A stretch of 64,000 bases of DNA from an uncultured Rhodospirillaceae bacterium (GTDB lineage: Bacteria > Pseudomonadota > Alphaproteobacteria > Rhodospirillales > Magnetospirillaceae), in the NCBI GenBank assembly GCA_903941105.1, contig CAJANL010000164.1, positions 24,408 to 88,407 of the forward strand. The letters run 5' to 3'. Positions 3,916 to 56,781 of the stretch are shown one piece after another. A program made the translations under genes and the position numbers. Numbering within the stretch: the stretch's first letter is position 1; each line of letters opens with the position of its first letter. The notes below the pieces were generated by a model. The model was not told where the DNA came from and ran no database searches. It worked only from the letters and a program-made list of their open reading frames with translations.

Positions 3916-3919
3916 GGCG

Positions 3920-5203: not shown

Positions 5204-5369
5204 TGCCGCATCTCGATGAAGTCGACTCATCGAGATACGGTTAGGCGCAAGGCGCCGCGCGGCTCGTGCCGCGGGAGCCAAGGGTTTCGGAGAAACCCGC
5301 CCGGCACTTGAGGGCTCCGGTGATCGGTTGCGATCAACGGGATGCGGTATAAAGGGGGAGGCGAGCCTC

Positions 5370-6392: not shown

Positions 6393-6504
6393 TCAGGCGA
6401 GCCTTTTCGCGGGCCCTCGCCGGGCGGTCGCATCCGCGACCTTGGCCGCGGCCTCAATGGCCGCCGATGACCGGCGAACGGCTCATTGCGAGCGTCCAGC
6501 GGCT

Positions 6505-7059
6505 TCATTCCGGCCGTTCCCCCGCCTTTATCCACCGCGTCTTGCCGGCCAGCGCCAGGCCGACCCGGTTGGCGATGCGGTCGGCCAGTTCGGTGACGGC
6601 GCGGTTGGCGGCGTCGCGTTCCATGGCGACGCTGGCGTAGCGGGGGCCGAGATAATCAAAGCTGACGAGGGCTTCCTCGCTGCCGGAAACGCTGGAGCCC
6701 TGGTCCTCGTCGGAAAGGATGACGCGGGCGGTCAGCCGCATGTCGGCCATGGTGGCGTAAGTGTCCTTGCGGTAGCCGAGGCCGCCCTCGCTCTGGGTCA
6801 ATACCACCGACAGGATGTAGCGCGGGCTGGCCGGCTCGCCGGTGGGGCTGATGCGGGTCAGCAGGGCGTTGCGCAGGTCCTGGCCAAGGCGGTTTTCGAT
6901 GCCGTTGATCCGCACCCCACCCATTTCGGCCGCCACCGAGGACTGACCGCCCTGGGCGCCGCCACGGGCGTAGAGCGGCCGGAAGCCGCAGCCGGACAAA
7001 CCGGTCGCCGCCAGCACGGCGACGATAACCACCAGTCTGGATGACTTAGACCACCACAT
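6505..7059 (-). CDS. lptE: LPS-assembly lipoprotein LptE
   Basis: 184 aa with lipobox LSGC then GFRPLY. Located immediately downstream of leuS, whose stop it overlaps by 14 nt, which is the canonical leuS-lptE arrangement. Confidence 0.8.
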
Positions 7060-36679: not shown

Positions 36680-37648
36680 TTAGCCTAATGAGCCCAGCCC
36701 GGGATACATCCAGGTCAGCTCATGTTTGTTGTGGCAGAGGTGGATCAGCGTCGATCCCGGCACCTGGGCGAAGATCCGTGCGGTGGCATGATCGGTATCG
36801 CCTTGGAACTTCAGGGTGCAGATGAAGCTGCCCACCATGCCCGATGCCAGCCAGCGCTCCACCAGCCGCCACTGTCGTTCCGGGTAGCAAATGATGTCCG
36901 AACACAGCCAGTCGACCGGCCCGATCTCGGCGGGGTCCAGGGCGAAGGCGCTGCCTTGGCGCCACTCCACCCCGGCCATCGCCGCCACATGGGGGGCCAG
37001 CGGCGCCTTGTCCACCGCCACCACCGCCGCCCCGCCCGAGGCCAGCACCCAGGTCCAGCCGCCCGGGCTGGCGCCGAGATCGAGGCAGCGGTCGCCGGGG
37101 CCGGGGTGGCGGCCCAGCAGGGTCAGCGCCTCCCACAGTTTGAGATAGGCCCGGTTGGGCGGCGCCTCGCGATCCTCGACGAACGCGACCTCGCCATTGG
37201 GGAACGGGCTGGAGCAGCGCGCCGCCGCCAGCAGGGTATGCTCGTCCAGCAGGGTGAACGAGCCCAGCGCCGAGCCGGGCGCCGGCTGCCCGAATACCTG
37301 CGGCTTGGCCGACACCTTGGGCAGGGTGTCGGCGATCAGCTGGGTGCGGCGGAACAGGCCGGGCGCATAGGGCCACCAGTTGCGCTGGATGGCCTTGAGG
37401 GCGCGGGCGGCCTCACCGATGGAGGCCACCGGAATGCGTACCGGGTCACGCCAGACATTGGCCGCCCACGCGACGGCCCGTGGCGGGCCGGGGGCGAGCA
37501 GCAGGCGGCCGTGGGTCTCGGCGACATCACCCAGCTCGGCCGCCAGGTCGGCCTCGCACCCCTCGGCGGCGAGATAGCCGGTGACGGGAGGGCAATCAGA
37601 CACGGCTGGACACGGCTGGACACCGATGGAGGGGGTGGCTCGTATCAA
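36680..37648 (-). CDS. RlmM-like FtsJ-fold rRNA 2'-O-methyltransferase
   Basis: 322 aa with a TTG start. C-terminal SAM-binding fold [10 protein letters not shown]...[15 protein letters not shown]...DWLCSDI matches RlmM/FtsJ-type motifs. Overlaps the fliG stop by 4 nt. Confidence 0.65.
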
Positions 37649-38664
37649 TACACCAGCTCGTCTTCCTCACGGCCTTCGGAGATGACGATCTGGCCCGAGG
37701 CGGACAGTTCCTTGGCCATGGCGACGATGGCGTTCTGTGCCTGATCCACGTCGCGCAGGCGCACCGGCCCCAGCGCCTCCATGTCCTCGCGCATCATCTT
37801 GCCGGCGCGTTCCGACATGTTCTTGAAGAACAGCTCCTTGACCCCTTCCGAACCGCCCTTGAGGGCGAGGCCCAGCTTGTCCTTTTCGCAATGGCGCAGC
37901 AGGGTCTGGATGCCGCCGGCGTCGAGGCGCACCAGGTCGTCGAAGGTGAACATCAGCTGCTTGATGCGTTCGGCGGACTCGCGGTTGCGTTCCTCCAGGG
38001 CGCTCATGAAGCGGTTTTCGGTGTTGCGGTCGAGGTTGTTGAAGATGTCGGCCATCATGTCGTGCGGGTCGCGGCGCTGGGTGCGGGCGAGGTTGGCCAT
38101 GAACTCGGTGCGCAGGGTCTTTTCGACGCCGTCCAGCACTTCCTTCTGCACCGCCTCCATGCGCAGCATGCGCATGATCACTTCCATGGCGAAGTTCTCG
38201 GGCAGGATAGCCAGCACGCGGGCGGCATGGCCGCCGGCGATCTTGGCCAGGATGATGGCGACGGTCTGCGGGTACTCGTTCTTGAGGTAGTTGGCGAGAA
38301 CCTGTTCCGAGACGTTGCCCAGCTTGTCCCACATGGTGCGGCCGGCGGGGCCGCGGATTTCCTCCAGGATGGCGTCGACGCGATCCTTGGGCAGCGCCTT
38401 CAACAGCAGGCGCTCGGTATTCTGCGCCGAGCCCACCAGCGAGCCGGTGGATGACAGCTGATCGGCGAACTCGATAAAGATTCGCTCGACCACGTTCGAG
38501 TTCACGGTTCCCAGCTTGGCCATCAGCTGGGAGAGTTCCTTGATCTCGTCGTCCGACATCATGCCGAACAGCTTGGTCGATTGGTCTTCACCCAGCGACA
38601 GCATCATGATGGCCGCCTTCTGCGGGCCGGTGATGCTGCGATAGTCCTCTTTTGTGCGGGCCAT
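37645..38664 (-). CDS. fliG: flagellar motor switch protein FliG
   Basis: ORF 37645..38667. ATG at 38664 preceded by [27 protein letters not shown]-like [16 protein letters not shown], and the C-terminal torque-helix region. Confidence 0.93.
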
Positions 38665-38807
38665 CAAAAACTCCCGTGCTCACGCGCACCTCGACTCTAC
38701 CCGAAAATTGCGATGGTGCGTTCAACATTTTCCCAGTAGGAGGTAACCCGTCAGTAAGGTCCAGGGGCCACCCTGGCGGCCGGAGAGGCTGCCGACGGGG
38801 ACGATAG

Positions 38808-39431
38808 GTGATCGAGTTCGTAGGTTTCAACCGCGACGAAGTGACACTGATCAGGGACTTCGTCGGACGCTTCCGGGCCGACGAGCACAGCATGGCCGAA
38901 CTGGCGCGTGTCGAGCGCTTTTCCCTGCCGGGCTACCTCGGCCGCGTGGTGCCGCAGCCCAGCCCCTGTGGGCTGAAATTGCCCACCACCGTCTTCCTCG
39001 CCGCCTGCCGGCCGTTCACCATCGCCCATGAACTGGCCCACGTCTCGGATATCGCGGTGCGCCGTCAGGAGACCCTGGACCACATGGCCGAGCGCATGCC
39101 GGCGCCCTGGCACTTGTCGCACCGCATGTCGTCCGAGTATTACGCCAACCGCATTGCCAGCGGCTATGTCGGCGAGGACGAGGTCTTCAAGGCCTTCACC
39201 GGCGACCTCAACGGCATGCGTCTTGCCGCCGTGGAAAACGACTGGGCCTCGTTCCTGATCTACTATGCTCTGTTGCTGGGGATCTTCCACGGGCTGGGCC
39301 GCTTCGACTGTGACCCGGTGCGGCCGTTGGACCCGGCCCCTTACATTCCCGAGGCGGTGCGCGAGGGGATGAATGCTTTCCGCGACAACGCCGTCGACTT
39401 CTTCGCCGAGTTCCGCGAGGCGGCCGAATAG
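38808..39431 (+). CDS. hypothetical protein with a HExxH motif (putative zinc-dependent hydrolase)
   Basis: 207 aa with a GTG start. PFTIAHELAHVSD is the only recognisable motif. Divergent from fliG. Confidence 0.5.
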   Translation: MIEFVGFNRDEVTLIRDFVGRFRADEHSMAELARVERFSLPGYLGRVVPQPSPCGLKLPTTVFLAACRPFTIAHELAHVSDIAVRRQETLDHMAERMPAPWHLSHRMSSEYYANRIASGYVGEDEVFKAFTGDLNGMRLAAVENDWASFLIYYALLLGIFHGLGRFDCDPVRPLDPAPYIPEAVREGMNAFRDNAVDFFAEFREAAE

Positions 39432-39440: not shown

Positions 39441-41564
<2,124 letters not shown>

Positions 41565-41568: not shown

Positions 41569-42117
41569 TCAGCGCTGTTCGGCCGACACGCTGTCCAGCA
41601 GGGCCAGCAGGCCGGCGAGCAGGGCCAGGGGGCCGGGCGGGCAGCCGGGGATGTGCAGGTCGACCGGCACCACGGTGTGCGCTCCCCCCAGCACGGCATA
41701 GGAGCCGGCGAAGCAGCCGCCGTCGCGGGCGCAATCGCCCATGGCCACCACCCATTTGGGGGCGGGGGTGGCGTCGTAGGTGCGCTTCAGCGCCTCGGCC
41801 ATGTTGAGGCTGACCGGGCCGGTGACCAGCAGCACGTCGGCGTGGCGCGGGCTGGCGACGAAGCGGATGCCGAAGCGCTCCAGGTCATAGACCGGGTTGT
41901 TGACGGCGTGGATCTCCAGCTCGCAGGCATTGCACGAGCCGGCATCCACCTCGCGGATGGACAGCGAGCGCCCGAGCCGGGCCCGCGCCGCCTCGCCCAC
42001 CCGCGCCGCCAGCTCGGCCACGCCGTCGGGCGCCGGTTCGGGGCCGCCGCTCATGGTGTAGGGACCCTTGAACAGGTGGCGGAACAGCAGGCTGGCGATG
42101 GGCGGGATGAGGGGCAT
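41569..42117 (-). CDS. NuoB/HycG-like small subunit of a group-4-hydrogenase-related complex
   Basis: ORF 41569..42225 trimmed to the ATG at 42117 (TAATG overlap with the upstream stop). The four Fe-S ligand cysteines are kept: DAGSCNACELE, GDCARDGG, IPGCPP. Confidence 0.85.
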   Translation of the reverse strand: MPLIPPIASLLFRHLFKGPYTMSGGPEPAPDGVAELAARVGEAARARLGRSLSIREVDAGSCNACELEIHAVNNPVYDLERFGIRFVASPRHADVLLVTGPVSLNMAEALKRTYDATPAPKWVVAMGDCARDGGCFAGSYAVLGGAHTVVPVDLHIPGCPPGPLALLAGLLALLDSVSAEQR

Positions 42118-43637
42118 TACAGGTCCGCTCCCGAATAGGAGCAGTTGAAGCTCTTGTTGCACAGGGGGAAGTCGGCGACGATGTTGCCTTCGATGCAGGC
42201 CTCCAGCAGCGGCCACTGGAACCACGACGGGTCATGCGGGTGGCAGCGTACGATGCGTCCGGCCTCGGACACCCGCGCCCACACCACCACCTCGCCGCGG
42301 AAACTTTCCGCCAGCCCCATGCCCTCGCCCGAGCGGGTCGGCACCGCCGCCATGGCGGCGCCCTCCGGCATCTCCTGCAGGATGCGGTTGATCAGCCGCA
42401 GCGATTCCTTGACCTCCTCGATGCGGATCTCGACGCGGGAATGAACGTCGCCGTCCGCCAGTACCGGCACCACCAGGTCGAGATCGTCATAGGGCGGATA
42501 GCCGCGCGTCCGCCGGGCATCGTGGCCCTGCGACGAGGCCCGGCCGACGAAGCCGCCGGCGCCGAAGCGGTGCACCAGTGCGCCGGGCACCACGCCGGTG
42601 CCGGTGGTGCGGTCGAGCAGCGAGGGGGTTTCCTGATAGAGGTGGACGGCCTTCATGAAGTCCTTGCGGAAGCCGTACAGCATGTGTTTCAGCGCCTCGG
42701 CGCCCGAGTCGGACAGGTTGACCGTGACGCCGCCCGGCACCACCCGGTCCATCAGCAGGCGGCTGCCGAACAGGGCTTCGTTGGCGCGCAGCAGTTTCTC
42801 GCGCAGCGTTCCCATATGCGACAGCATGATGGCGAAGGCGGCGTCGTTGCATACCGCGCCGATGTCGAAGACGTGGTTGGCGATGCGCTCCAGCTCGCCC
42901 ATCAGCGCCCGCAGCCAGTGCGCCCGCGGCGGTGGCTCACAGCCCAGCGCCGCCTCGACCGCCCGCGAGAAGGCGATGGAATAGGCCACCGTGGCGTCGC
43001 CCGAGGTGCGGCTGACGATGCGGCAGGCCTCCAGCAGCGGCTTGCCCGCCACCAGGGCCTCGATGCCCTTGTGGACATAGCCCAGCCTCTGCTCCAGCCG
43101 GACCACCGTCTCGCCTTGGCAATGGAAGCGGAAATGTCCCGGCTCGATGACGCCGGCATGCACCGGACCCACCGGGATCTGGTGCAGCCCCTCGCCCTCG
43201 GCGGTGCGGAAGCGATAGGAATAGGGCTCGGCGGCCGGCTCCTCGGGGTGGACGGCCAGCGGGCGGCGGCGCGACCAGCGGCCGTGGTCGAGCCAGGGCC
43301 GCTGATCCTCCAGCCCCTCGGGCGCCAGCCCCCACACATCGCGGATGGAGCGTTCGATACGGATCGCCGCCGGGCGCACCTGGCCCAGGGCGTAGAAGCG
43401 GCGCTCGGGGCAGTGATGCGACGCCACCGCGATGTCGCCGGTGGTTTCGTCGCGCAATGCCACGTGAATCTCGTTGGGTTCGGCCCACTCGGCCATCAGC
43501 ACCCAGTCGGCCGCCGCCAGCTGCTGCACCAGCGCCCGCCAGGTCCGTCCGTCGAGCTGATAGCGCGGCCACGGCCGGTGCCCCGAAACCTCGCGGCCGG
43601 CGGAGAGAAAATCGAGCAGGGTCATCTTGCCCATCAT
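42117..43637 (-). CDS. fused NuoC/NuoD-like 'large subunit' (HycE/HyfG-like) that lacks the NiFe cysteine ligands
   Basis: 506 aa. Conserved IPVGPVHAGVIEPGHFRF. The expected N-terminal CxxC position reads RTSGDATVAYS. The C-terminus reads FPLCNKSFNCSYSGADL instead of DPCxxCxxR/H. There is no CxxC pair anywhere in the protein. Confidence 0.85.
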   Translation of the reverse strand: MMGKMTLLDFLSAGREVSGHRPWPRYQLDGRTWRALVQQLAAADWVLMAEWAEPNEIHVALRDETTGDIAVASHHCPERRFYALGQVRPAAIRIERSIRDVWGLAPEGLEDQRPWLDHGRWSRRRPLAVHPEEPAAEPYSYRFRTAEGEGLHQIPVGPVHAGVIEPGHFRFHCQGETVVRLEQRLGYVHKGIEALVAGKPLLEACRIVSRTSGDATVAYSIAFSRAVEAALGCEPPPRAHWLRALMGELERIANHVFDIGAVCNDAAFAIMLSHMGTLREKLLRANEALFGSRLLMDRVVPGGVTVNLSDSGAEALKHMLYGFRKDFMKAVHLYQETPSLLDRTTGTGVVPGALVHRFGAGGFVGRASSQGHDARRTRGYPPYDDLDLVVPVLADGDVHSRVEIRIEEVKESLRLINRILQEMPEGAAMAAVPTRSGEGMGLAESFRGEVVVWARVSEAGRIVRCHPHDPSWFQWPLLEACIEGNIVADFPLCNKSFNCSYSGADL

Positions 43638-43644
43638 CGCGCCG

Positions 43645-45129
43645 TCATCCCAGCATTCCGGCCACGGTGTGGAACCATGCCACCAGCGGCGGCGGCAGAT
43701 ACAGCCCGGCGATCAGCACCAGGAGGACGTGCAGCCACAGCGGGATCAGCGTCATGGCCGTTCCCAGTGCGGTGGCGTGACCGTGGGCGTGGCCCAGGGA
43801 CGGCGGCCCGAACGCCATCTGCTGCATGCGCATCACCAGCGCGCCGAATGCCAGCAGCAGCCCGAGGGCCAGCGGCGCCGCCAGCAGCGGCTCGCGGGCG
43901 AAGGTCGAGCTCACCACCAGGAATTCGCTCATGAACACCCCCATGGGCGGCAGTCCGGCAATGGCGAGCACCGCGATGACGAAGCCCCAGCCCAGCACCG
44001 GGTTGCTGGTGGTCAGGCCGCGGATGTCGACGATGCGCTTGCTGCCGGCGTCCTGGGTGATGACGCCGACGGCGAAGAAGATGGCCGACTTGGTCAGCGA
44101 GTGCATGGTCATGTGCATCAGCCCGGCGAAGTTGGCCAGGGCGCCGCCCATGCCGAAGGCGAAGGTGATCACCCCCATGTGCTCGATGGAGGAATAGGCG
44201 AACAGCCGCTTGATGTCGCCGCGCCGGTACAGCATGAAGGCGGCGAGGAACAGGCTCGACAGCCCCATCATGATCATCAGCGGCCCGGGCGACAGGGTGC
44301 CGCCGTTGGCGCTGATCACCATCTTGAAGCGCAGCAGGGCATAGAGCGCCACGTTGAGCAGCAGGCCCGACAGCACCGCCGAGATGGGCGTCGGGCCTTC
44401 GGCATGGGCGTCGGGCAGCCAGGCGTGCAGCGGCGCCAGGCCCACCTTGGTGCCATAGCCCACCAGCACGAAGACGAAGGCCAGGTTGAGCAGGTCGGGG
44501 TGGAACTCGTGGGCGCGCTTGATCATCATGGTCCAGGCCATGGCCTCGGCGCCGTCGCCCATCACCGGCTGCGCCGCGAGATAGAACAGGGTGGTGCCGA
44601 ACAGCGCCAGTCCGATGCCCACCGAACACAGGATGAAGTACTTCCATGCCGCCTCGATGGCCTCGCGGGTGCGGTAGAGGCTGACCATCAGCACCGTGGT
44701 TAGCGTCGCCGCCTCGACCGCCACCCACATGACGCCGGTGTTGTTGGCGGTCAGCGCCAGCAGCATGGTGAACATGAAGGCCTGATACATGGAGTGGTAG
44801 AAGCGCAGGTGGACGTCCGACAGGCGCTGCGCCTCGCTCTCGCGGGCGATATAGGCCGCCGAGAACATGGCGGTGGTGAAGCCGACGAAGCCGGTCAGCA
44901 CCACCAGATAGATGTTGAAGTCGTCGATGAACAGCAGCTTGGAGGGCTCGGGCCGCGACTCGAACAGGGTCAGCGAGGCGAGGAAGGTGATCCCCGAGGC
45001 CAGCACGTTGACCCAGGTCGCCACCCGCCACTTGGGCAGCACCGCGAGGAAGCCGGCGCTGGCCAGCGGCACCGCCAGGATCCAGAACAGCGGGTTGCCC
45101 ATGCCGGGGGCCACGACGAAGGGTATCAC
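43645..45129 (-). CDS. hyfF: HyfF-like antiporter-type membrane subunit (NuoM/N family)
   Basis: ORF 43645..45645 trimmed to the GTG at 45129 (GTGA overlap with the hyfE-like stop); an alternative ATG is at 45102. Contains GVMWVAVEAATL, GLAPLHAWLPDAHAEGP and the multi-TM Mrp/NuoN pattern. Confidence 0.8.
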   Translation of the reverse strand: MIPFVVAPGMGNPLFWILAVPLASAGFLAVLPKWRVATWVNVLASGITFLASLTLFESRPEPSKLLFIDDFNIYLVVLTGFVGFTTAMFSAAYIARESEAQRLSDVHLRFYHSMYQAFMFTMLLALTANNTGVMWVAVEAATLTTVLMVSLYRTREAIEAAWKYFILCSVGIGLALFGTTLFYLAAQPVMGDGAEAMAWTMMIKRAHEFHPDLLNLAFVFVLVGYGTKVGLAPLHAWLPDAHAEGPTPISAVLSGLLLNVALYALLRFKMVISANGGTLSPGPLMIMMGLSSLFLAAFMLYRRGDIKRLFAYSSIEHMGVITFAFGMGGALANFAGLMHMTMHSLTKSAIFFAVGVITQDAGSKRIVDIRGLTTSNPVLGWGFVIAVLAIAGLPPMGVFMSEFLVVSSTFAREPLLAAPLALGLLLAFGALVMRMQQMAFGPPSLGHAHGHATALGTAMTLIPLWLHVLLVLIAGLYLPPPLVAWFHTVAGMLG

Positions 45130-45794
45130 TGGCGATCCCCCCGATAGGTTTCCAGGTAGTGCAGGTCCAGCGTGTCGAAGCGCTCGCGGATGCGGAAGAA
45201 GAAGATGCCGAACAGGGTCATGGCCACCAGCACGCTGAACGCCACCGAGATCTCCACCACCAGCGGCATGCCCTTGGCCGACACCGCCGCCAGGATCAGC
45301 CCGTTTTCCAGCGCCATGAAGCCCACCACCTGCGTCACCGCGTTGCTGCGGGTGATCATCATCAGCAGGCCGAGCAGCACCACGCTCATGGCCAGGGCCA
45401 GGCTCTCGCGGGTCAGCGCCGCGGCGCTGGCGGTCACCGGCAGCACCAGCATGATGGACAGCGCCACCAGCGCCACGCCGACGATCATGGTCCAGCCGAT
45501 GCTGAGCGCGGTCTCGACGGTGCGGTGGATGCCCAGCCGCTCCACCAGCCAATGCAGCGCGAAGGGGACCAGGATGGCCTTGAACAGCAGGGCGATGCCG
45601 GCGGTGACGTAAAGGTGCGGCGCGTTCTGGATGTGCGCCTGCCACGCCGCCGCCGCCGCCAGGGCGACGGCCTGGAAGGCGAAGGTGTTGAGCACCGCGA
45701 ACAGCCGGCGCTGGTACAGCAGCCCGAATCCGGCCATCAGCACGGTGGCGCCGATCAGGTGGGCGAGGTCGTAGGACAGATGCGTCAACATCAC
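45126..45794 (-). CDS. hyfE: HyfE-like membrane subunit (NuoK-related)
   Basis: 222 aa and very hydrophobic. GFMALENGLILAA motif typical of hydrogenase-4 component E. ATGA overlap with the upstream gene. Confidence 0.8.
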   Translation of the reverse strand: MMLTHLSYDLAHLIGATVLMAGFGLLYQRRLFAVLNTFAFQAVALAAAAAWQAHIQNAPHLYVTAGIALLFKAILVPFALHWLVERLGIHRTVETALSIGWTMIVGVALVALSIMLVLPVTASAAALTRESLALAMSVVLLGLLMMITRSNAVTQVVGFMALENGLILAAVSAKGMPLVVEISVAFSVLVAMTLFGIFFFRIRERFDTLDLHYLETYRGDRQ

Positions 45795-46738
45795 ACCGCC
45801 TCCGACACGTAAAGGAAGATGGTGGCCAGCAGGCCCAGCAGCAGGGCGCCGCCCAGGAAGTCGGCGTAGCGGAACACCCGCATCTTGGCGATCATGGTTT
45901 CGAACAGCGCCAGCGCGGTGGCCAGGATGAAGGCCTTGGCCAGGAAGGCGCCCAGGCCGATCAGCACCCCCAGCGCCCCGCCGCCCGGCTGGGCGATGCC
46001 CCAGGGGAAGAACAGCGAGGCGATCAGGGCGGTGAACAGGGTCAGCCGCACCATGCCGGCGCCCTCGATCAGCGCCAGGTGACGACCGGAATACTCCAGC
46101 ACCATGGCTTCGTGCACCATGGTCAGTTCCAGATGGGTGGCCGGGTTGTCGATGGGGATGCGGCCGTTCTCGGCGATGGCCACCATCACCAGCGCCCCCA
46201 GCGACAGCCCCAGCGACACCTCAATGCCGACGCCGCCCGACAGGATGAAGGTGATGATCTGCACCGGCGCCGTCGAGCCCGAGATCAGCGACAGCGAGAA
46301 GGTCACCATCAGCATGGCCGGCTCGGCCAGGCTGGCGATCAGCATCTCGCGGCTGGCGCCGATGCCGCCGAAGGCGGTGCCCACATCCATGCCGGCCAGG
46401 GCGGTCCAGAACCGCGCCACCGCCAGCAGCGCCACCAGGGCGATCAGGTCGGCGGCGGGGGCGAGGAACAGGTTGGTGGTGAAGGTGGGCACGATGCAGG
46501 CCGCCAGCCACACCGCCGCGAAGGTGACATAGGGCGCGGCGCGGAACACCCACGAGGCCGAATGGGCGACGATGGCCTCTTTCTGCAGCAGGCGATAGAC
46601 GTCGCGATAGGGCTGCAGCGGCGAGGCGCCGCGGCGGCCGTTCAGGCGGGACTTGACGAAGCGCACCCAGCCGGTCACCAGGGGGGCCAGCGCCACCACC
46701 AGCACGATCTGCACCAATTGCAGCAGCATCGCGCTCAT
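45791..46738 (-). CDS. hyfC: HyfC/HycD-like membrane subunit (NuoH family)
   Basis: ORF 45791..46861 trimmed to the ATG at 46738 (ATGA overlap with the hyfB-like stop). LQPYRDVYRLLQKE, ...GRIPIDNPATHLELTMVHEAMVLEYSG. Confidence 0.85.
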   Translation of the reverse strand: MSAMLLQLVQIVLVVALAPLVTGWVRFVKSRLNGRRGASPLQPYRDVYRLLQKEAIVAHSASWVFRAAPYVTFAAVWLAACIVPTFTTNLFLAPAADLIALVALLAVARFWTALAGMDVGTAFGGIGASREMLIASLAEPAMLMVTFSLSLISGSTAPVQIITFILSGGVGIEVSLGLSLGALVMVAIAENGRIPIDNPATHLELTMVHEAMVLEYSGRHLALIEGAGMVRLTLFTALIASLFFPWGIAQPGGGALGVLIGLGAFLAKAFILATALALFETMIAKMRVFRYADFLGGALLLGLLATIFLYVSEAV

Positions 46739-48741
46739 TGCTGCCTCACCGCGACGACCAGCAGCAGGAACACCAGCGCCGTGAACATCATCAGCAGGTA
46801 ATGGCGCACGGTGAGGAACTGCAGCCGGTTGACCTGATCGGCGATCTTGCCGACGGTCCATCCCAGCGATTCATAGATGCCGCTCCACACCGGGTCGATC
46901 ATGCGGAGGCGGTGGGTGGCGGGGGCCTCGTCGCCCGGCGGCGGCATCACCACCTCCTCGCGGGCGGCGAACACGGTGGAGCCGAACACCCGGCGCAGCG
47001 GCTGGGCGAAGCTCTCGCCGGTGTACTGGGTCTCGGGGATGTTCTCGCGGTGGCCGCAGTCCCAGGCGTCGGCGCGGCGCAGGGCCCGGGTGCCCAGCCG
47101 GTGCACCAGCAGGATGCTGACCAGGAACAGCGACAGGCCGACCATGATCAGCACCGTCCCCGAATAGGCGCCCCGCGTCGCCGATACCGGCGACAGCCAC
47201 GGCCAGCCCAGATCGGCCGATACCGGCACCTGCACCCCGGTCAGCGGCTGCACCACCGCCGACAGGGCATCGGCCACCGTCACCGGGATGGCGCCGAGCA
47301 CGACGCACAGGGCTGCCAGCACCACCATGGTCAGGCGCATGCCGGCGGTGACCTCGCCGGCGTCGGCGGCCTGGGGCGAGCGGGGGCGGCCGAGGAAGGC
47401 GATACCGTAGGCGCGCACGAAGCAGGCGGCGGCCAGGGCGGCGGCCAGTGCCAGCAGCGCCCCCACCACCGGCACGCCGAACTTCATCGCCCAATAGGGC
47501 AGGCTGGGCCCCTTGAACAGCGACTGGAAGATCAGCCATTCCGAGACGAAGCCGTTCAAGGGCGGCAGGGCCGAGATGGCGGCGGCCCCCATCAGGGCGG
47601 CGGCGCCGGTCCACGGCATGCGGTTCAGCAGGCCGCCCAGCTTGTTGAGGCTGCGCTCGCCGGTGGCGGTGATCACCGCGCCGGCCGAGAGGAACAGCAG
47701 CGTCTTGAAGATGGAGTGGTTGATGACGTGATAGAGCCCGGCCACCAGCGCCAGCGCCGCCAGCTGGGTCTCGCCGCCGCCCTTGAAGGCCAGTGCCAGC
47801 CCCAGCCCGATCACCACCACCCCGATGTTCTCGACGGTGGAGTAGGCCAGCAGCTTCTTGAGGTCGTCCTGCATGATGGCGTACAGCACGCCCATCACCG
47901 CGGTGATGCCGCCGATCACCATCACCACCGCGCCCCACCGCCAGCTCAATTCGCCGTGCAGGTCGAACAGGATGCGGATCATGCCGTAGATGGCGACCTT
48001 GGTCATCACGCCGCTCATCAGCGCCGAGACATGGCTGGGCGCCGCCGGATGGGCCAGCGGCAGCCAGGCGTGCAGCGGTACCAGTCCGGCCTTGGAGCCG
48101 GTTCCCAGCAGCGCCAGCACCACCACCAGGAAGCTGGAAATGCCGGTCAGTTCGTGGGTGCGCATGTCGGCGAAGGCGTAGGCGCCCTCGGCCCCGGCCA
48201 TGATGCCGAAGCAGGGCAGCAGGCAGAAGGTTCCGAAGGCGGCCATGCACAGATAGACCGTGGCGGCGCGGCGGTTCTCCGCCTCGTGGTGGTCGGCCAG
48301 CACCAGCAGCCACGAGGCCAGCGACATGAATTCCCAGGCCACCAGGAACATGAAGGCGTCGTCGGCCAGCAGCACCGAGTTCATGCCGAACAGAAACAGC
48401 GGGAAGAACGGCGTCACCCGCCGTGGTGACGGAAGATGCGCGGAATAGCCGATGCCGAAGGCGGAACAGGCCGCGCCCGACAGGTTCACCACCACCATGA
48501 ACAGGGCGGACAGGTTGTCGAGGCGGAAATGCGCCTGCACCCAGGGCAGGCCGAAGGGCAGCACCAGTGCCGGCTCGGCCCCGGCGGGACCGCCCAGGTG
48601 GTGGAGGCCACTGAGCAGCAGCAGGATGCAGGCGATGAAGGCGCCGCTGTAGACCACGGCGTGGACCGAGCGCCAACGTCCGGCCAGCAGCCCGAACAGG
48701 GCCAGCAGCAGCAGTGCCACCAGCGCCCAGGCGATCAGCAT
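46735..48741 (-). CDS. hyfB: HyfB-like antiporter-type membrane subunit (NuoL family)
   Basis: 668 aa. FLVAWEFMSLASWLLV, GSKAGLVPLHAWLPLAHPAAPSHVSALMSGVMTKV. First gene of the operon. Confidence 0.85.
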   Translation of the reverse strand: MLIAWALVALLLLALFGLLAGRWRSVHAVVYSGAFIACILLLLSGLHHLGGPAGAEPALVLPFGLPWVQAHFRLDNLSALFMVVVNLSGAACSAFGIGYSAHLPSPRRVTPFFPLFLFGMNSVLLADDAFMFLVAWEFMSLASWLLVLADHHEAENRRAATVYLCMAAFGTFCLLPCFGIMAGAEGAYAFADMRTHELTGISSFLVVVLALLGTGSKAGLVPLHAWLPLAHPAAPSHVSALMSGVMTKVAIYGMIRILFDLHGELSWRWGAVVMVIGGITAVMGVLYAIMQDDLKKLLAYSTVENIGVVVIGLGLALAFKGGGETQLAALALVAGLYHVINHSIFKTLLFLSAGAVITATGERSLNKLGGLLNRMPWTGAAALMGAAAISALPPLNGFVSEWLIFQSLFKGPSLPYWAMKFGVPVVGALLALAAALAAACFVRAYGIAFLGRPRSPQAADAGEVTAGMRLTMVVLAALCVVLGAIPVTVADALSAVVQPLTGVQVPVSADLGWPWLSPVSATRGAYSGTVLIMVGLSLFLVSILLVHRLGTRALRRADAWDCGHRENIPETQYTGESFAQPLRRVFGSTVFAAREEVVMPPPGDEAPATHRLRMIDPVWSGIYESLGWTVGKIADQVNRLQFLTVRHYLLMMFTALVFLLLVVAVRQQ

Positions 48742-48886
48742 GCCGCCACGCTTTCCGTTAGCCGGACCTCACATTCGCTCGACTGCACTGGCCCCTCCGC
48801 CCCCGTTGGCTACTCAACCCGCCATAAGGGTTATCGACTTTATCATGGATGGATCGGCACGCAAGCTGTCGCGAAATGCCGGTGAC

Positions 48887-48944
48887 AAATAACGGTGACA
48901 GTGCACTGATTCAATAACGAAATAACGGTGACAGTGCACTGATT
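48887..48944. repeat. two direct copies of a 25-nt REP-like unit upstream of the RAYT gene
   Basis: AAATAACGGTGACAGTGCACTGATT occurs at 48887-48911 and 48920-48944. The core contains the palindrome CAGTGCACTG. Confidence 0.85.
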
Positions 48945-48976
48945 GACACGGAGCGGTCGATGGCGGAGGATGATGC

Positions 48977-49672
48977 ATGAGCCGCCTTGCCCGCCTCGTC
49001 ATCCCCGGCCTGCCGCATCACGTCACCCAGCGTGGCAATGGCCGCGCGCAAGTGTTTTTCTGCGACGCGGACTATGCCCTCTACCGCGCCCTCCTGGCAG
49101 AGTCTTGCCGCGCCGCCGCTGTCGATGTGTGGGCGTGGGTGTTGATGCCTAATCACGTCCACCTGATCTTGGTGCCCTCGGACACCGACGGACTGCGCCG
49201 CGCTTTGGCCCCGGTGCATCGCCGCTATGCCGGCCACGTCCATGCCCGCCTGAACCGCACCGGCCACTTCTGGCAGGGCCGTTTCGGCGCCGTGGTCATG
49301 GACGAGCCGCACCTTGAGGTAGCCGTTCGCTATGTCGCGTTCAACCCCGTGCGCGCCGGACTGGTCGCGCGCCCGCAGGATTGGGCCTGGTCCAGCGTCC
49401 ACGCCCACCTCGCCGGGCGCGACGACGGCATCACCGCCATAGCTCCCATCCATGCCCGCATCCCGGACTTCGGAGCCTTCATCGAGACCCCGCCCGACCC
49501 GGCAGCACTCGCCCGCCTGCGCCGGGCCGAAACCATCGGACGCCCCCTCGGCGGCGACACCTTTCTTGCCGAGCTCGAAGCCCTCACCCACCGCTCCCTC
49601 AAACCCGCAAAGCCGGGACCAAAGTCGAGGACGGAAAGTCAGACAAAGGGCGATGGCGTTTGGGCTAATTAG
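48977..49672 (+). mobile_element. REP-associated tyrosine transposase (IS200/IS605-like Y1 HUH transposase, RAYT)
   Basis: 231 aa. PGLPHHVTQRGN, HUH motif MPNHVHLIL, catalytic-Tyr region RYVAFNPVRAGLV..P.DW.WSS. GGAGGA lies 7 nt before the ATG. Flanked by inverted REP units. Confidence 0.85.
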
Positions 49673-49724
49673 TGCACTGTCACCGTAACCAGTGCACTGT
49701 CACCGTAACCATGTCACCGTAACC
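49671..49724. repeat. REP-like units downstream of the RAYT gene, inverted relative to the upstream pair
   Basis: AGTGCACTGTCACCGTAACC occurs twice in tandem (49671-49690, 49691-49710), followed by a truncated ATGTCACCGTAACC (49711-49724). The core AGTGCACTGTCACCGT is the reverse complement of the upstream unit. The first copy overlaps the RAYT stop. Confidence 0.85.
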
Positions 49725-49727
49725 ACA

Positions 49728-49779
49728 AGGACGGACAGTCAGACAAAGGGGGGTGGCGTTAATTAGTGGACTGTCACCG
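49728..49779. repeat. duplicated copy of the RAYT 3' end plus REP
   Basis: 49728-49779 aligns with 49628-49685 at 48/52 identity, with one 6-nt indel. Confidence 0.8.
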
Positions 49780-49842
49780 GAATTTTGTCACCGGAATTTG
49801 TCGTCACCGGAATTCTGTCACCGGAATTCACCGGAATTCCGG
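49775..49842. repeat. irregular tandem array of the decamer CACCGGAATT (5 copies), ending in the palindrome CCGGAATTCCGG
   Basis: Copies start at 49775, 49789, 49805, 49819 and 49829 (spacings 14, 16, 14, 10). The 12-bp palindrome is at 49831-49842. Confidence 0.85.
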
Positions 49843-50385: not shown

Positions 50386-52047
50386 GTGAACGCATTCCTT
50401 CAGATGCTGCGTGGCCTGGGGCCCATGCGACTGGCCGCCATCGCCGGCGTCGGTGTCAGTATCCTCGGCTTCTTCATCTACCTGATGAGCCGGGTGGCGG
50501 CGCCGCAGCTTGAACTGCTCTATGGCGACCTCGACCTGGGCGATTCCAAGCAGATCATCGAGAAGCTGACCACCGAGAAGATTCCCTACGAACTTCGCAA
50601 GGACGGCACCGAAATCTGGGTGCCGAAGGACCGCAAGCTCGAACTTCGGGTGCGCATGGCGGAACAGGCGCTGCCCACCGGCGGCCGCATGGCCGGCTAC
50701 GAGCTGTTCGACAAGCAGGACGCGCTCGGCACCACCAGCTTCCAGCAGAACATCAATCTGGTGCGCGCGCTGGAAGGCGAACTGGCCCGCACCATCCGCT
50801 CCATCGAAAAGATCAAGTCGGCCCGCGTCCATCTGGTGCTGCCCAAGCGCGAGGCCTTCTCGCGCGAGGCCAATGACCCCTCGGCTTCGGTCATCCTCAA
50901 GATGGCCGGCAGCCAGCGCCTGGAAAAGAGCCAATCGCTGGCCATCCAGCACCTGATCGCCGCCGCCGTGCCCAAGATGAAGCCGTCGCGCATCTCCATC
51001 GTCGACGACAAGGGCACCCTGCTGGCGCGCGGCTTCGAGAACAGCCAGGAGTTCATCTCGCAGACCGCCGAGGAATCCCGCCTCAACCACGAGGGCAAGC
51101 TGGCCCGCACCATCGAGGACATGATCGAGCGCTCGCTCGGGCCGGGCCGCGTCCGCGCCGAGGTCTCCATCGACATGGACATGAGCCGCGCCGTCACCAC
51201 CGAGGAGACCTACGACCCCGAGACCAAGGTGGTGCGTTCGCAGGTCACCATCAGCGAGACCGACCAGAGCCAGGACTCCGAGCCGACCCCGGTCACCGTG
51301 CAGCAGAACCTGCCCGATCCCTCCGCCGGTTCGTCGGGCAACGTCAAGACCTCGTCCAAGGCGTCCAAGAGCCAGGAAACCATCAACTACGAGATCTCGA
51401 AGAAGACCCGGAACACGGTGCGCGAGAGCGGCGAGGTCCGCAAGATCTCGGTGGCGGTGCTGGTGGACGGGGTGCGCGAGAAGCAGTCCGACGGCAAGCA
51501 GAGCTACCGCGACCGCACCCCCGAGGAGATCGCCCAGCTGGAGGCCCTGGTCAAGTCGGCCATCGGCTTCACCAAGGACCGCGACGATCAGGTCAAGGTG
51601 GTCTCCATGTCGTTCTACAAGGGCGAGGAGCTGTCCGACGCCGAGGAGCCGGGTGAATTCATCTTCGGCATGCGTCGCGACTTCGTCGAGAAGGTCGCCT
51701 CCAACCTGGGCCTGTCCATCGTCGCCATCCTGTTCCTGCTGCTGGTGCTCCGCCCGCTGATCAGCCGCGCCATCGAGTCCATGCAGGGACAGGTCGGTCC
51801 CGACGGCCGCCGCCTGCTCACCGCCGAGGGCGCCGGCGTGCCGCAGCTTACCGGCCCGGGCGCCGGCGGCATGGCCGCCCCGGCCCTGGGCGGCGAGGAG
51901 GAGGTCATCGCCGACGAGCTCATCGACATCGACAAGGTGGAAGGCCGGGTCAAGGCCTCGTCCATCCGCAAGATCGGCGAGATCGTCGACAAGCATCCGG
52001 AAGAGGCGCTGTCCATCATTCGCAACTGGCTCTATCAGGAAGCCTGA
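50386..52047 (+). CDS. fliF: flagellar M-ring protein FliF
   Basis: 553 aa with a GTG start 5 nt after GGAG. N-terminal TM, YscJ/FliF-family periplasmic region (ARVHLVLPKREAFSRE), C-terminal TM and FliG-binding tail. Confidence 0.93.
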   Translation: MNAFLQMLRGLGPMRLAAIAGVGVSILGFFIYLMSRVAAPQLELLYGDLDLGDSKQIIEKLTTEKIPYELRKDGTEIWVPKDRKLELRVRMAEQALPTGGRMAGYELFDKQDALGTTSFQQNINLVRALEGELARTIRSIEKIKSARVHLVLPKREAFSREANDPSASVILKMAGSQRLEKSQSLAIQHLIAAAVPKMKPSRISIVDDKGTLLARGFENSQEFISQTAEESRLNHEGKLARTIEDMIERSLGPGRVRAEVSIDMDMSRAVTTEETYDPETKVVRSQVTISETDQSQDSEPTPVTVQQNLPDPSAGSSGNVKTSSKASKSQETINYEISKKTRNTVRESGEVRKISVAVLVDGVREKQSDGKQSYRDRTPEEIAQLEALVKSAIGFTKDRDDQVKVVSMSFYKGEELSDAEEPGEFIFGMRRDFVEKVASNLGLSIVAILFLLLVLRPLISRAIESMQGQVGPDGRRLLTAEGAGVPQLTGPGAGGMAAPALGGEEEVIADELIDIDKVEGRVKASSIRKIGEIVDKHPEEALSIIRNWLYQEA

Positions 52048-52132
52048 TTCGGCCAGGAAGCGTGATTGGGCCAGGGAGCGTGATTGGGGTTGTCATCGCC
52101 GGGGGCCGTGAAGAGGACGAGTCGGTGCACTG

Positions 52133-52855
52133 ATGGGAAACAAGGACAAGATGGGCAACGACGGCGCGGCGATGCGCAAGTACATGTTCGATGTCGATTT
52201 CGGCCCGCCGTCGGCCGCCCATGCCGCTGCCGCCGTGGCTGCCGCACTGGACGACGACGAGAATGAGCCGCTCGTCGCGGCCGAGGATTTGCCGCCGCCC
52301 CCCACCTTCAGCGAGGAGGAGCTGCAGCTCGCCCGTGAGTCCGCCTTCGAGGAGGGCCGTCAGGCCGGGCTGGCCGAGGCGGCCGATATGTCCGAGCGCA
52401 TGCTGGCCTCGGCCATGGCCGGCATCGCCGGCGGCGTCGAAATCCTGAAGGCGCAGCAGGAGGAGCTTGGCGACGTCCATGTCCGCACCGCGGTGCGGGT
52501 GGCCATGGCGGTGCTGAAGAAGGTGCTGCCCGGCGCCTGCGAGAAATACGCTTTCGAGGAGGTGGCGCGCGTGGTCGAGGAGTGCATCGGCCATGTGCTG
52601 GACGAGCCCCGCATTGTCGTGCGTGTATCCGCCGATTTGACCGACCCCATCCGCGACCGGCTCGAAGCCATCGCCGCCGATCAGGGCTTCCAGGGGCGGG
52701 TGGTGGTGCAGGCCGATGCTCGGCTGTCGCCCGGCGATTGCCGGGTCGAGTGGACCGATGGCGGCGCCGAGCGCGATCAGGCGCGGCTGGTGCGCGATGT
52801 CGAGGACGCCGTCGAGCGATCGCTGGCCCCGCCGGACCACCCGGCCGGCGAATGA
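52133..52855 (+). CDS. fliH: FliH-like flagellar assembly protein
   Basis: 240 aa. Acidic/Ala-rich N-terminus, FSEEELQLARESAFEEGRQAG, C-terminal SPGDCRVEWTDGGAERD. Positioned between fliF and fliN. Confidence 0.6.
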   Translation: MGNKDKMGNDGAAMRKYMFDVDFGPPSAAHAAAAVAAALDDDENEPLVAAEDLPPPPTFSEEELQLARESAFEEGRQAGLAEAADMSERMLASAMAGIAGGVEILKAQQEELGDVHVRTAVRVAMAVLKKVLPGACEKYAFEEVARVVEECIGHVLDEPRIVVRVSADLTDPIRDRLEAIAADQGFQGRVVVQADARLSPGDCRVEWTDGGAERDQARLVRDVEDAVERSLAPPDHPAGE

Positions 52856-52891
52856 ACATTATCCGGCTCTTAGCGGCCGTTGGAGGACGAC

Positions 52892-53215
52892 ATGGGTGAT
52901 TTCGATCTGACCGACTTCAAGACCGAGGGCGACGATGGTCGTGGCGATGTCCCCGACATGCCGCGTTCGGCGCGCGACCTCGAAGCGGTCTACGATATCC
53001 CGGTCCAGGTCTCGGCGGTGCTGGGCAAGTCGACCATGCAGGTCAACCAGCTGCTCAAGCTGGGCCGCGGCGCGGTGGTCGAACTGGACCGCAAGGTCGG
53101 CGAGGCCATCGACATCTATGTCAACAATCGCCTGGTGGCGCGCGGCGAGGTGGTGGTGGTGGAAGACCGCCTGGGCGTGACCATGACGGAAATCATCAAG
53201 ACCGATCGCGGCTGA
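52892..53215 (+). CDS. fliN: flagellar motor switch protein FliN
   Basis: ORF 52880..53215. ATG at 52892 lies 5 nt after GGAGG. SpoA-type C-terminal domain: IPVQVSAVLGKSTMQVNQLLKLGRGAVVELDRKVGEAIDIYVNNRLVARGEVVVVEDRLGV. Confidence 0.9.
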   Translation: MGDFDLTDFKTEGDDGRGDVPDMPRSARDLEAVYDIPVQVSAVLGKSTMQVNQLLKLGRGAVVELDRKVGEAIDIYVNNRLVARGEVVVVEDRLGVTMTEIIKTDRG

Positions 53216-53225
53216 GAGGGACGAC

Positions 53226-54605
53226 ATGCGACTTCTGATCATCGGCTCGATGGACGGGCAGATCGGGGCGGCGAGCCAGATCGCCATGGCGCGCGGCGCC
53301 AAGGTGCGGGTGTGCGAAGACGTCGACAGCGGGATGGACGTTCTGCGCACGCAAGGCGCCGACCTGGTGATGATCGACGTCCGCCGCGACATCAAGACCT
53401 TCATCGAGCGGCTGGAGGCCGAACGCATCGTCCTGCCGGTGATCGCCTGCGGCATTGCCTCGGACGCCTCGGCGGCGGTGCGCGCCATCAAGGCCGGCGC
53501 CAAGGAATATATCCCGCTGCCGCCGGATGCCGAGCTGATCGCCGCCGTGCTGGCCGCCGTCACCGCCGAGAGCCACAGCATCGTCTTCAAGGACCCGCGC
53601 ATGGCGCAGTCGCTGAAGATGGCCGAGCAGGTGGCGGGGTCGGACGCCTCGATCATGATCACCGGCGAGTCGGGCACCGGCAAGGAGCTGATGGCCCGCT
53701 TCATCCATCGCAAGAGCCGCCGCGCCGACAAGCGCTTCGTTGCCGTCAACTGCGCCGCCATCCCCGAGAACCTGCTGGAATCCGAGCTGTTCGGCCATGA
53801 GAAGGGCGCCTTCACCGGCGCCGTCGCCCGCCGCATCGGCACGTTCGAGGAGGCCGCCGGCGGCACCCTGCTGCTGGACGAAATCTCCGAGATGGACGTG
53901 CGGCTGCAGTCCAAGCTGCTGCGCGCCATCCAGGAAAAGGAAATCGACCGGGTGGGCGGCAACCAGCCGGTCAAGGTCGACGTGCGCATCCTCGCCACCT
54001 CCAACCGCAACATGGAGGACGAGATCCGCAAGGGCACCTTCCGCGAGGATCTCTATTACCGCCTCAACGTCGTCACCGTGGCACTGCCGGCGCTGCGCGA
54101 ACGGCCGCTCGACATCGCGGTGCTCTCCGAGCATTTCATCAAGAAGTACTCGGACTCCAACGGCATGCCGACCCGTCCGCTGGCCGCCGAGACCCGCCAG
54201 ATGCTGACCCGCCACGTCTGGCGCGGCAATGTGCGCGAGCTGGAAAACACCATGCATCGCGCCGTGCTGCTGGCCTCGGGCTCCGAGATCGGGCCGGAGG
54301 CGATCATCCTCACCGGCGCGCCGATCGGCACCAATCCCGACCCGCTGGTGGCGCAGGCCGCCTCGGCGGCGGCCTCGGTGATGGCCGGAGGCGCCCGTGG
54401 CGGCCTGGTGGGCAAGACGGTGGCCGAGGTCGAGCGCGACCTGATCATCGACACCCTCAGCCACTGCCTGGGCAACCGCACCCACGCCGCCACCATCCTC
54501 GGCATTTCCATCCGCACGCTGCGGAACAAGCTGAAGCAGTACACCGACGAGGGCATGCCGGTGCCGCCGCCGGCCGGTGGCGAAATCGACCGGGCGGCGA
54601 TGTGA
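53226..54605 (+). CDS. flbD: sigma-54-dependent transcriptional activator with a degenerate receiver (FlbD-type)
   Basis: 459 aa. AAA+ core GESGTGKELMARFIH, GAFTGA loop (EKGAFTGA), C-terminal HTH. The receiver lacks the acidic pair and the conserved Lys. Sits between fliN and flhA, as flbD does in Caulobacter-type clusters. Confidence 0.85.
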   Translation: MRLLIIGSMDGQIGAASQIAMARGAKVRVCEDVDSGMDVLRTQGADLVMIDVRRDIKTFIERLEAERIVLPVIACGIASDASAAVRAIKAGAKEYIPLPPDAELIAAVLAAVTAESHSIVFKDPRMAQSLKMAEQVAGSDASIMITGESGTGKELMARFIHRKSRRADKRFVAVNCAAIPENLLESELFGHEKGAFTGAVARRIGTFEEAAGGTLLLDEISEMDVRLQSKLLRAIQEKEIDRVGGNQPVKVDVRILATSNRNMEDEIRKGTFREDLYYRLNVVTVALPALRERPLDIAVLSEHFIKKYSDSNGMPTRPLAAETRQMLTRHVWRGNVRELENTMHRAVLLASGSEIGPEAIILTGAPIGTNPDPLVAQAASAAASVMAGGARGGLVGKTVAEVERDLIIDTLSHCLGNRTHAATILGISIRTLRNKLKQYTDEGMPVPPPAGGEIDRAAM

Positions 54606-54644
54606 GAAGGGATCGTTCCGTGACCTCGGAGAAAAGGCCCCGGC

Positions 54645-56765: not shown

Positions 56766-56781
56766 TGACGAGAATTAACCC

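Follow-up and report, generated by a model that had tools for sequence, protein, structure and literature searches.

Six open reading frames (ORFs) on the minus strand of a 64-kb stretch of DNA from an uncultured Rhodospirillaceae bacterium (hereafter the window; ~68% guanine plus cytosine [GC]) very probably encode a complete, selectively maintained, six-subunit complex of the energy-converting-hydrogenase-related (Ehr) class, and not a hydrogenase. The locus spans positions 41569-48741. Ehr complexes have been defined by their kinship with group 4 [NiFe]-hydrogenases, their lack of NiFe-binding cysteines, and their Mrp/Nuo-type membrane subunits (PMC6349859, PMC10284858, PMC10432482; a further source is PMC6728331), and their function is given as unknown in that defining literature (PMC6349859, PMC10284858, PMC10432482). 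We assigned the locus to Ehr rather than to the [NiFe]-hydrogenases because every Ehr feature that we tested was found and the defining hydrogenase feature was not: the large subunit is homologous to group 4/NuoD proteins and lacks both CxxC motifs, and NuoB-like iron-sulfur (Fe-S), NuoH-like, and Mrp/Nuo antiporter-like subunits are encoded in one cluster. An earlier note on this DNA had proposed the same class, and the hyf synteny, lost NiFe cysteines, and kept Fe-S cysteines described below bear it out. We consider the explanation as a whole, which joins this identity to an inferred mechanism, likely to be right.

The large subunit and its former NiFe site

Hydrogenase large subunits carry two motifs, L1 (RxCGxCxxxH) and L2 ([DE][PL]CxxCxx[HR], for example, ...NKSFELCYSCxDR). 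The large subunit of the cassette and the segments corresponding to these motifs lie as follows:

42117..43637, minus strand: fused NuoC/NuoD-like large subunit, 506 amino acids (aa)
42978..43010, minus strand: former L1 motif, R210-T-S212-G-D214-A215-T-V-A-Y-S
42120..42170, minus strand: former L2 motif and C terminus, FPLCNKSFNCSYSGADL-stop

In profile searches, the large subunit matched PF00346 (Complex1_49kDa) and the N-terminal part of PF00374 (NiFeSe_Hases; 2.5e-7). The top phmmer match among all PDB chains was Escherichia coli HycE (7z0s_E; E = 1.6e-51), with MbhL (1.5e-38), NDUFS2 (1.3e-32), NuoD (~1e-32), and MbsL (6u8y_L; 7e-21) also matched. The HycE alignment placed RVCGIC opposite RTSGDA and DPCYSCTD opposite NCSYSGAD. 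NiFe-bearing relatives with 34-40% identity gave the same register, with R.CG.C opposite R.SGD. and NKSFELCYSC.DR opposite NKSFNCSYSGADL, as did E. coli HyfG and the Desulfitobacterium hafniense protein. We checked this register independently by MAFFT alignment, using E. coli HyfG and 14 NiFe-bearing relatives. In the four columns of the NiFe ligands, the window protein has S212, A215, S500, and G503, none of them cysteine, and the nine cysteines among the 506 residues form no CxxC pair anywhere; one of these cysteines, C499, immediately precedes the first L2 ligand column. Thus, both the loss of all four NiFe cysteines and the absence of a CxxC pair, as claimed in the earlier note, withstood the alignment check that it had proposed. 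We also detected no C-terminal extension for endopeptidase processing upon alignment with relatives.

The large subunit adopts the HycE/NuoCD fold, but because its four ligand cysteines are replaced, it is predicted to be unable to hold the Ni-Fe(CN)2CO cofactor and should neither make nor consume H2. An AF2 monomer model of the large subunit (pLDDT 76, pTM 0.81) retrieved HycE (7z0s_E) as the top Foldseek match (E = 5e-27, TM-score 0.75), with fused NuoCD proteins next. A working [NiFe]-hydrogenase 4 or formate hydrogenlyase-2, in which our register is wrong or residues other than cysteine hold the metal, would agree with the source annotations, the PF00374 match, and the hyf synteny. However, the phmmer and MAFFT registers agree on four non-cysteine columns in a protein devoid of CxxC, and equivalents of HyfA, HyfH, and FdhF are absent. 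No hyp, hycI, or fdh gene was found in the window, and no hyp maturation or endopeptidase gene was found within 10 kb on either side of 66 related loci. We regard a working hydrogenase as extremely improbable and already contradicted by the sequence. Nevertheless, close homologues are named "nickel-dependent hydrogenase large subunit" or "hydrogenase 4, subunit," and others "Ni,Fe-hydrogenase III large subunit" or "hydrogenase expression protein HypE," in keeping with the caution of the earlier note that an automatic hydrogenase label would be wrong here.

The residues that replace the ligands are strongly conserved. Among 121 aligned sequences (the window protein and 120 homologues of 59-90% identity; mean column identity, 73%), R-x-S-G-D-[SA]-T-V-A-Y and FPLCNKSFNCSYSGxDL were invariant or nearly so. 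At the former L1, this conservation covers R210, S212, G213, D214, T216, V217, and A218; toward the C terminus, N494, K495, S496, F497, N498, C499, Y501, G503, and D505 were invariant. Since these motifs remain fixed in an alignment of 73% mean column identity, the replaced site is under purifying selection and not decaying.

We also compared the 150 closest representatives at 50%-identity clustering (7150 representative clusters matched at E<=1e-3). Most of the 150 lack the cysteines and share a relaxed signature, R.SGD[STEN] and PDFPL[IC]NKSFN[LC]SY[SA]G.DL. Cysteine occupies all four columns in 13/150, which read R.CG.C..SH and PDFPLINKSFELCY[SA]C.DR where the window protein reads RTSGDATVAYS and ADFPLCNKSFNCSYSGADL. 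When 100 Cys-less sequences were set against 15 NiFe-bearing ones, only columns 186, 212, 470, 500, 503, and 506 separated the classes; the rest of the large subunit, including the EPGHFR loop, is common to both. The second L1 cysteine column (215) is also lost, yet it varies within the Cys-less group. In a neighbor-joining (NJ) tree, the Cys-less sequences formed one clade; NiFe-bearing group 4f-like sequences stood beside it, and E. coli HyfG and NuoCD lay at a greater distance.

Two further cysteines raise the idea that the alphaproteobacterial subclade has built a new metal or cofactor site from C493, C499, D214, and H/D504-505 for a new small-molecule reaction, such as sulfane-sulfur chemistry resembling that of MBS, a NiFe-less hydrogenase relative that is catalytic and whose MbsL was among the phmmer matches above. 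C493 is kept in 115/121 and C499 in 121/121 sequences of this subclade, C499 adjoins a former ligand column, and D214 is invariant. In contrast, these cysteines are not kept in the wider Cys-less family, where Leu is usual at position 499 and Ile or Val frequent at position 493, so that such a site would not be a family-wide need. We consider this subclade-specific chemistry quite improbable.

The cassette, its remaining subunits, and its surroundings

The other genes and segments of the locus are as follows:

46735..48741, minus strand: HyfB/NuoL-like antiporter-type membrane subunit, 668 aa, first gene of the operon
45791..46738, minus strand: HyfC/HycD/NuoH-like membrane subunit, 315 aa, PF00146 match (E = 1.9e-33)
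45126..45794, minus strand: HyfE-like membrane subunit, 222 aa, NF008556 match
43645..45129, minus strand: HyfF/NuoM-N-like antiporter-type subunit, 494 aa from a GTG start
41569..42117, minus strand: NuoB/HycG/HyfI-like small subunit, 182 aa, one [4Fe-4S] site
41923-41937, 41716-41739, and 41635-41646, minus strand: cluster ligand segments of the small subunit
48742..48976, no strand assigned: upstream intergenic region, presumed promoter, with two exact 25-nucleotide (nt) repeats resembling repetitive extragenic palindromic (REP) elements

All six ORFs are intact, with a third-position GC content of 0.81-0.96, a range typical of genuine genes. Reading the junctions directly, we found an ATGA overlap between the HyfB- and HyfC-like genes (B/C), a GTGA overlap between the HyfE- and HyfF-like genes (E/F), at which the GTG start of the latter was read, and a TAATG overlap between the large- and small-subunit genes (L/S). 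The C/E junction is a GTGA overlap, or TGATG if the start is the next ATG, and the F/L junction is a 7-nt spacer (TGA CGGCGCG ATG). Therefore, the coupling of six genes by ATGA, GTGA, and TAATG overlaps put forward in the earlier note stands for four of the five junctions and fails at F/L. Its assignment of the subunits as HyfB-, HyfC-, HyfE-, HyfF-, NuoC/NuoD-, and NuoB-like held in our profile searches.

The small subunit matched NF005012 (143 bits; cut-off, 116) and PF01058 (NuoB/Oxidored_q6), and its best phmmer match was HycG (7z0s_G; 5.2e-37). Alignment pairs C62 and C65 (SCNAC), C129 (GDCARDGG), and C159 (GCPP) with the cysteines that ligate the cluster in HycG, MbhJ, and NuoB, confirming the earlier claim that all four Fe-S cysteines are kept. 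We also observed a fifth cysteine, C135 (DGGCFAG; 41700-41716 region), soon after the third cluster ligand, at a position held by Ile or Met in E. coli HyfI, NuoB, and the D. hafniense homologue.

Glu, Lys, and His relay residues serve ion translocation in complex I and Hyf, and both antiporter-like subunits retain them. The HyfB-like subunit matched NCBIfam NF005086 ("hydrogenase 4 subunit B"; 844.6 bits, cut-off 667) and PF00361 and shares 36% identity with E. coli HyfB; its E137, K217, K248, H342, and E401 align with NuoM E144, K234, K265, H348, and E407. The HyfF-like subunit matched NF005043 ("hydrogenase 4 subunit F"; 807 bits, cut-off 533), and its E139, K228, N259, H343, and E402 follow the pattern of E. 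coli HyfF. Thus, the Glu of transmembrane helix 5 (TM5), Lys of TM7, Lys/Asn of TM8, His of TM11, and Glu of TM12 are kept in both subunits in the exact E. coli HyfB/HyfF pattern. HycD was the best solved homologue of the NuoH-like subunit (7z0s_D; 1.6e-37), whose TM5-6 loop, IPIDNPATHLELTMVHEAMVLEYSG, contains three inserted residues compared with E. coli HyfC/NuoH (EAEQEL) and is common to the Mariprofundus and NiFe-bearing D. hafniense homologues. The HyfE-like subunit matched NF008556 ("hydrogenase 4 membrane subunit"; 5.1e-23) at 82 bits, under the 136-bit cut-off, and gave a weak NuoK-like match (PF00420, E = 0.0019). Its membrane glutamates (ALENG 161-165 and VVEIS 179-183) align with E. 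coli HyfE, and a sequence search for a solved homologue returned none; no structure of the Hyf/4f type that includes HyfE is known.

The B-C-E-F-L-S gene order recurs in 52 related loci from Rhodospirillales, other Alphaproteobacteria, and Zetaproteobacteria. The closest named homologues belong to Magnetospirillum, Paramagnetospirillum, Phaeospirillum, Telmatospirillum, Terasakiella, and other Rhodospirillales, including a 70%-identical copy in Magnetospirillum gryphiswaldense MSR-1; more distant copies occur in Dongiaceae, Hyphomicrobiaceae, Falsiroseomonas, Methylocystis, and Zetaproteobacteria. Cluster look-ups of the representatives gave Falsiroseomonas, Acidimicrobiales, Aquicultor, Longimicrobiales, Dongiaceae, Methylocystis, Planctomycetota, and Desulfitobacterium, and returned neither Mycobacterium nor Geobacter, both of which we sought. 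Two Mariprofundus loci (L061 and L062) contain a seven-gene variant with tandem HyfB-like genes (713- and 670-aa ORFs; 2411-6587) before the HyfC-like gene. Three loci from metagenome-assembled genomes labelled Solirubrobacterales, Bacteroidota, and Actinomycetota (L001, L028, and L056) carry the complete cassette with 66-77% large-subunit identity. These contigs are probably mis-binned, given their likeness to Rhodospirillales sequences.

Clustering of the flank ORFs (±10 kb) of the 66 related loci revealed no conserved neighbor beyond genus-level synteny; the commonest flank families, a 340-aa protein without a Pfam match and an unannotated 355-aa ORF, each occurred in 15/66 loci. No NuoI/HycB-type ferredoxin (CxxCxxCxxxC ORF) was present in any of these flanks or in any frame of the window. 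Sigma-70 and terminator scans were at background, with no sigma-70 consensus or FNR-type box in the upstream region 48742..48976, and no conserved FNR-type box was found in 15 anchored upstream regions. Rfam searches gave no family in the window, nor any upstream at a relaxed threshold.

Downstream, a CHASE-PAS-HisKA-HATPase sensor kinase gene (39441-41564, minus strand) starts 4 nt past the stop of the NuoB-like gene (TGA CCGG ATG). Given this spacing, the kinase gene is probably cotranscribed with the operon; it adjoins the cassette in only three related loci. Upstream, an IS200-like Y1 transposase gene (PF01797; 48977-49672, plus strand) lies between inverted REP-like repeats in the region 48887-49828, with exact 25-nt copies (AAATAACGGTGACAGTGCACTGATT) at 48887-48911 and 48920-48944 and inverted copies at 49667-49686, 49687-49706, and 49761-49785. 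This arrangement looks like a REP-associated tyrosine transposase (RAYT) with REP doublets directly upstream of the Ehr operon. Beyond these elements stand divergent flagellar genes, fliG at 37645-38667 (minus strand) and fliF, a fliH-like gene, a sigma-54 activator gene, flhA, flhF, and a MinD/FlhG-like gene at 50386-58568 (plus strand), which flank the cassette, the histidine kinase gene, the ORF at 38808-39431, and the RAYT. That ORF (plus strand, 207 aa, third-position GC 0.87) encodes a HELAH (HExxH-like) motif and had no Pfam match and no homologue in the related loci. Because flagellar genes lay within 10 kb of the cassette in 0/66 related loci, the position between flagellar genes seems specific to the window genome.

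The lost catalytic ligands, together with a location beside a RAYT/REP element that relatives do not share, could be taken to mean that the operon is a decaying, functionless remnant of a hydrogenase operon. Against this idea stand the intact ORFs with their third-position GC content and overlapping junctions, the cassette order kept in 52 loci, and the invariance of the replaced residues. We give such a relic almost no credence, as the intact, conserved cassette already contradicts it.

Candidate electron transfer and ion translocation

Expression of related complexes has been reported in other bacteria. In Geobacter sulfurreducens, GSU0739-45 encode NuoL-like, HyfE-like, large, and small subunits, which were most abundant on formate (PMC7894505). 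In Methylocystis sumavensis, the ehfA-F genes of a "group 4f [NiFe]-hydrogenase" rose 4.2- to 4.5-log2-fold at pH 5 alongside those of two formate dehydrogenases, and H2 was not detected (2026 preprint 10.1101/2025.08.29.672306). The same preprint gives a genus-specific motif, PLHQIPVGP...ANGExVVRL...AARVS (10.1101/2025.08.29.672306). We found exactly this motif in a Methylocystis protein (MBI5011714.1; P0386), followed by AARVSGDSTVAY at L1 without RxCGxC. This protein is 52% identical to the window large subunit over 299 aa; the sequence that we compared covers the N-terminal 339 aa, with L1. Because the motif-bearing protein lacks the cysteines at L1 and is this similar to the window subunit, the acid-induced Methylocystis complex is probably an Ehr complex and not a hydrogenase. 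Its ehf genes form an alphaproteobacterial cassette like that of the window, with seven coinduced genes versus six, and their induction is the only expression clue for this alphaproteobacterial subclade. In another Methylocystis protein (P0391; 629 aa), a HyfF-like C terminus reads on into large-subunit sequence, suggestive of a gene fusion or of a frameshift in the call; the length of a 982-aa protein (P0342, from the cluster of P0209, which contains Longimicrobiales) matches the sum that a comparable fusion would have.

Because the operon lacks a NuoI/HycB-type wire, the lone Fe-S cluster of the small subunit would take electrons directly from an external low-potential partner, either ferredoxin or the Fe-S subunit of a dehydrogenase. 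Formate dehydrogenase is a candidate donor that recurs in three independent literature contexts. From the cluster, electrons could then pass to an acceptor other than protons, bound in the remodelled polar pocket where the NuoB-, NuoD-, and NuoH-like subunits meet; in these quinone-respiring alphaproteobacteria, the most economical guess for this acceptor would be membrane quinone. The resulting charge change would drive translocation of H+ (or Na+) via the HyfB- and HyfF-like subunits, and the reverse direction is possible. This specific scheme of donor, acceptor, and pump is tentative, and we think it less likely than not.

A bolder proposal, which we hold with still less confidence and consider doubtful, is that the invariant polar pocket (S212-G-D214, N494-K-S496, and S500-Y-S-G503, with C493 and C499 in the subclade) forms a new substrate or cofactor site by the [4Fe-4S] cluster. 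The complex would then be a respiratory enzyme not characterised before and used by aerobic and microaerophilic bacteria, for example, a ferredoxin- or formate-linked reductase of quinone (or another acceptor) coupled to a proton pump and switched on under acid or redox stress, and would be neither a relic nor a simple antiporter.

Several observations weigh against these assignments. The column of the complex I quinone Tyr (NDUFS2 RLDYVS; Thermus thermophilus Nqo4 Y87) holds G213 in the window protein, and the quinone His column (Nqo4 H38) stands opposite I164 in the phmmer alignment, in a loop where the alignment is less certain. With the Tyr column Gly and the quinone His not evidently conserved, a quinone site would therefore need to be built differently. 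The AF2 model is confident in the core but unreliable in the pocket and interface segments (144-190, 340-370, and 472-506), where pLDDT is <50. Because no gene nearby encodes a donor or an acceptor, the choice of redox partners is guesswork, and the expression evidence all comes from other organisms. Finally, the Cys-less clade had a bootstrap value of 37/200 in the NJ tree, and a single cysteine loss is not established.

The missing partners also bear on another explanation, that the complex is a redox-independent, Mrp-like cation/proton antiporter or pH-homeostasis module in which the NuoB/NuoCD cap serves as a structural or regulatory plug. The cassette encodes no electron-input subunit and has no donor or acceptor gene and no conserved neighbor, its relay residues are intact, and the homologous Methylocystis cassette is strongly acid induced under oxic conditions. 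However, the four cluster cysteines and ~20 pocket residues are invariant across the family, which a plug would not need, and Mrp antiporters function without any NuoB/NuoD homologue. We therefore consider a redox-independent antiporter unlikely.

Relation to hydrogenases, complex I, and other Ehr complexes

Ehr complexes are widespread, occurring in Mycobacterium tuberculosis, Nitrospira, Geobacter, methanotrophs, and magnetotactic bacteria. Public data already contain this alphaproteobacterial subclade, and the class as a whole, in abundance; the locus adds a member to a known class and is not a new kind of system. Its value lies in being a clean, minimal, and possibly genetically accessible example of Ehr, together with a caution about annotation. 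The self-contained six-gene cassette and its NiFe-bearing group 4f counterpart make a clean pair for comparative biochemistry, since their architecture is identical and the classes separate at only about six large-subunit columns. A knockout appears feasible because the tractable M. gryphiswaldense MSR-1 carries the 70%-identical copy. Annotation pipelines call these proteins nickel hydrogenases, and similarity-based classification may do the same; such mislabelling may already affect one methanotroph transcriptome study. If so, inferences of H2 metabolism in such genomes need to be checked against the ligand columns.

Other Ehr complexes have been described in M. tuberculosis (Rv0082-Rv0087), Nitrospira, ammonia-oxidizing archaea (AOA), and Margulisbacteria. 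We likened the Geobacter and M. tuberculosis complexes to that of the window by their subunit lists only, so that their putative membership in the same subclade is deduced from composition. The seven-gene Geobacter layout (EhrA-1/A-2) resembles the Mariprofundus variant with two HyfB-like genes. The Margulisbacteria Ehr genes adjoin fdhA-nuoEF, whereas the window locus does not. Like Pyrococcus furiosus MBS, the window complex is a NiFe-less hydrogenase relative, but MbsL matched the large subunit far less strongly than HycE did (7e-21 versus 1.6e-51).

The core that the window complex has in common with complex I and P. furiosus MBS/Mbx consists of NuoB/C/D/H and antiporter-like subunits together with an N2-type cluster. 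In contrast to complex I, it lacks NuoEFG, NuoI, NuoA, and NuoJ as well as the quinone Tyr, and its subunits amount to B, CD, H, two of the L/M/N type, and one HyfE-like. The earlier note had placed the Ehr class between the group 4 hydrogenases and complex I. Our results place the clade next to groups 4f/4a instead of midway, because the large subunit matched HycE at 1.6e-51 and NuoD/NDUFS2 at ~1e-32, because of its position in the NJ tree, and because the architecture is identical to that in D. hafniense.

Relative to group 4 [NiFe]-hydrogenases, the small subunit has the proximal [4Fe-4S] cysteines and the large subunit lacks the ligand cysteines. HycE, HycD, and HycG of formate hydrogenlyase-1 (7Z0S) are the best solved sequence and structural matches to the window subunits, but the FdhF, HycB/HyfA, and HycF/HyfH set of a formate hydrogenlyase is absent from the operon and the window. 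The E. coli hyf operon (hyfABCDEFGHIJ) is syntenic with the cassette in its B-C-E-F-G-I order, with 25-42% identity per subunit. Unlike E. coli hydrogenase 4, the window operon lacks HyfA, HyfD, HyfH (NuoI-like, 2x[4Fe-4S]), and HyfJ, as well as FdhF, the NiFe ligands, and the C-terminal peptide cut by HycI/HyfK.

The nearest NiFe-bearing relative that we could name is the large subunit ACL22289 of D. hafniense DCB-2, the hydrogenase of which has been classed as HydDB group 4f (PMC9888536). Its cluster (ACL22288-ACL22293) contains six genes, B-C-E-F-large-small, which correspond in kind and order to those of the window and include none for a NuoI/HycB-type subunit, and its subunits share 28-51% identity with those of the window. 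Both systems have the NuoH-like loop IP[IV]DNP.THLELTM.HE, GDCA.DGG in the small subunit, PDFPL.NKSF before L2, and a large subunit without a C-terminal extension. They differ at the catalytic site, where D. hafniense has RVCGVC and CYSCCDR (four cysteines) and the window has RTSGDA and SYSGADL. Further class-separating columns are 186 (G versus F), 470 (P versus A), and 506 (L, in SYSGADL of the window, versus R). Because this nearest NiFe-bearing relative matches the cassette in gene content and order, the window complex appears to derive from a six-subunit hydrogenase of group 4f through loss of the ligand cysteines.

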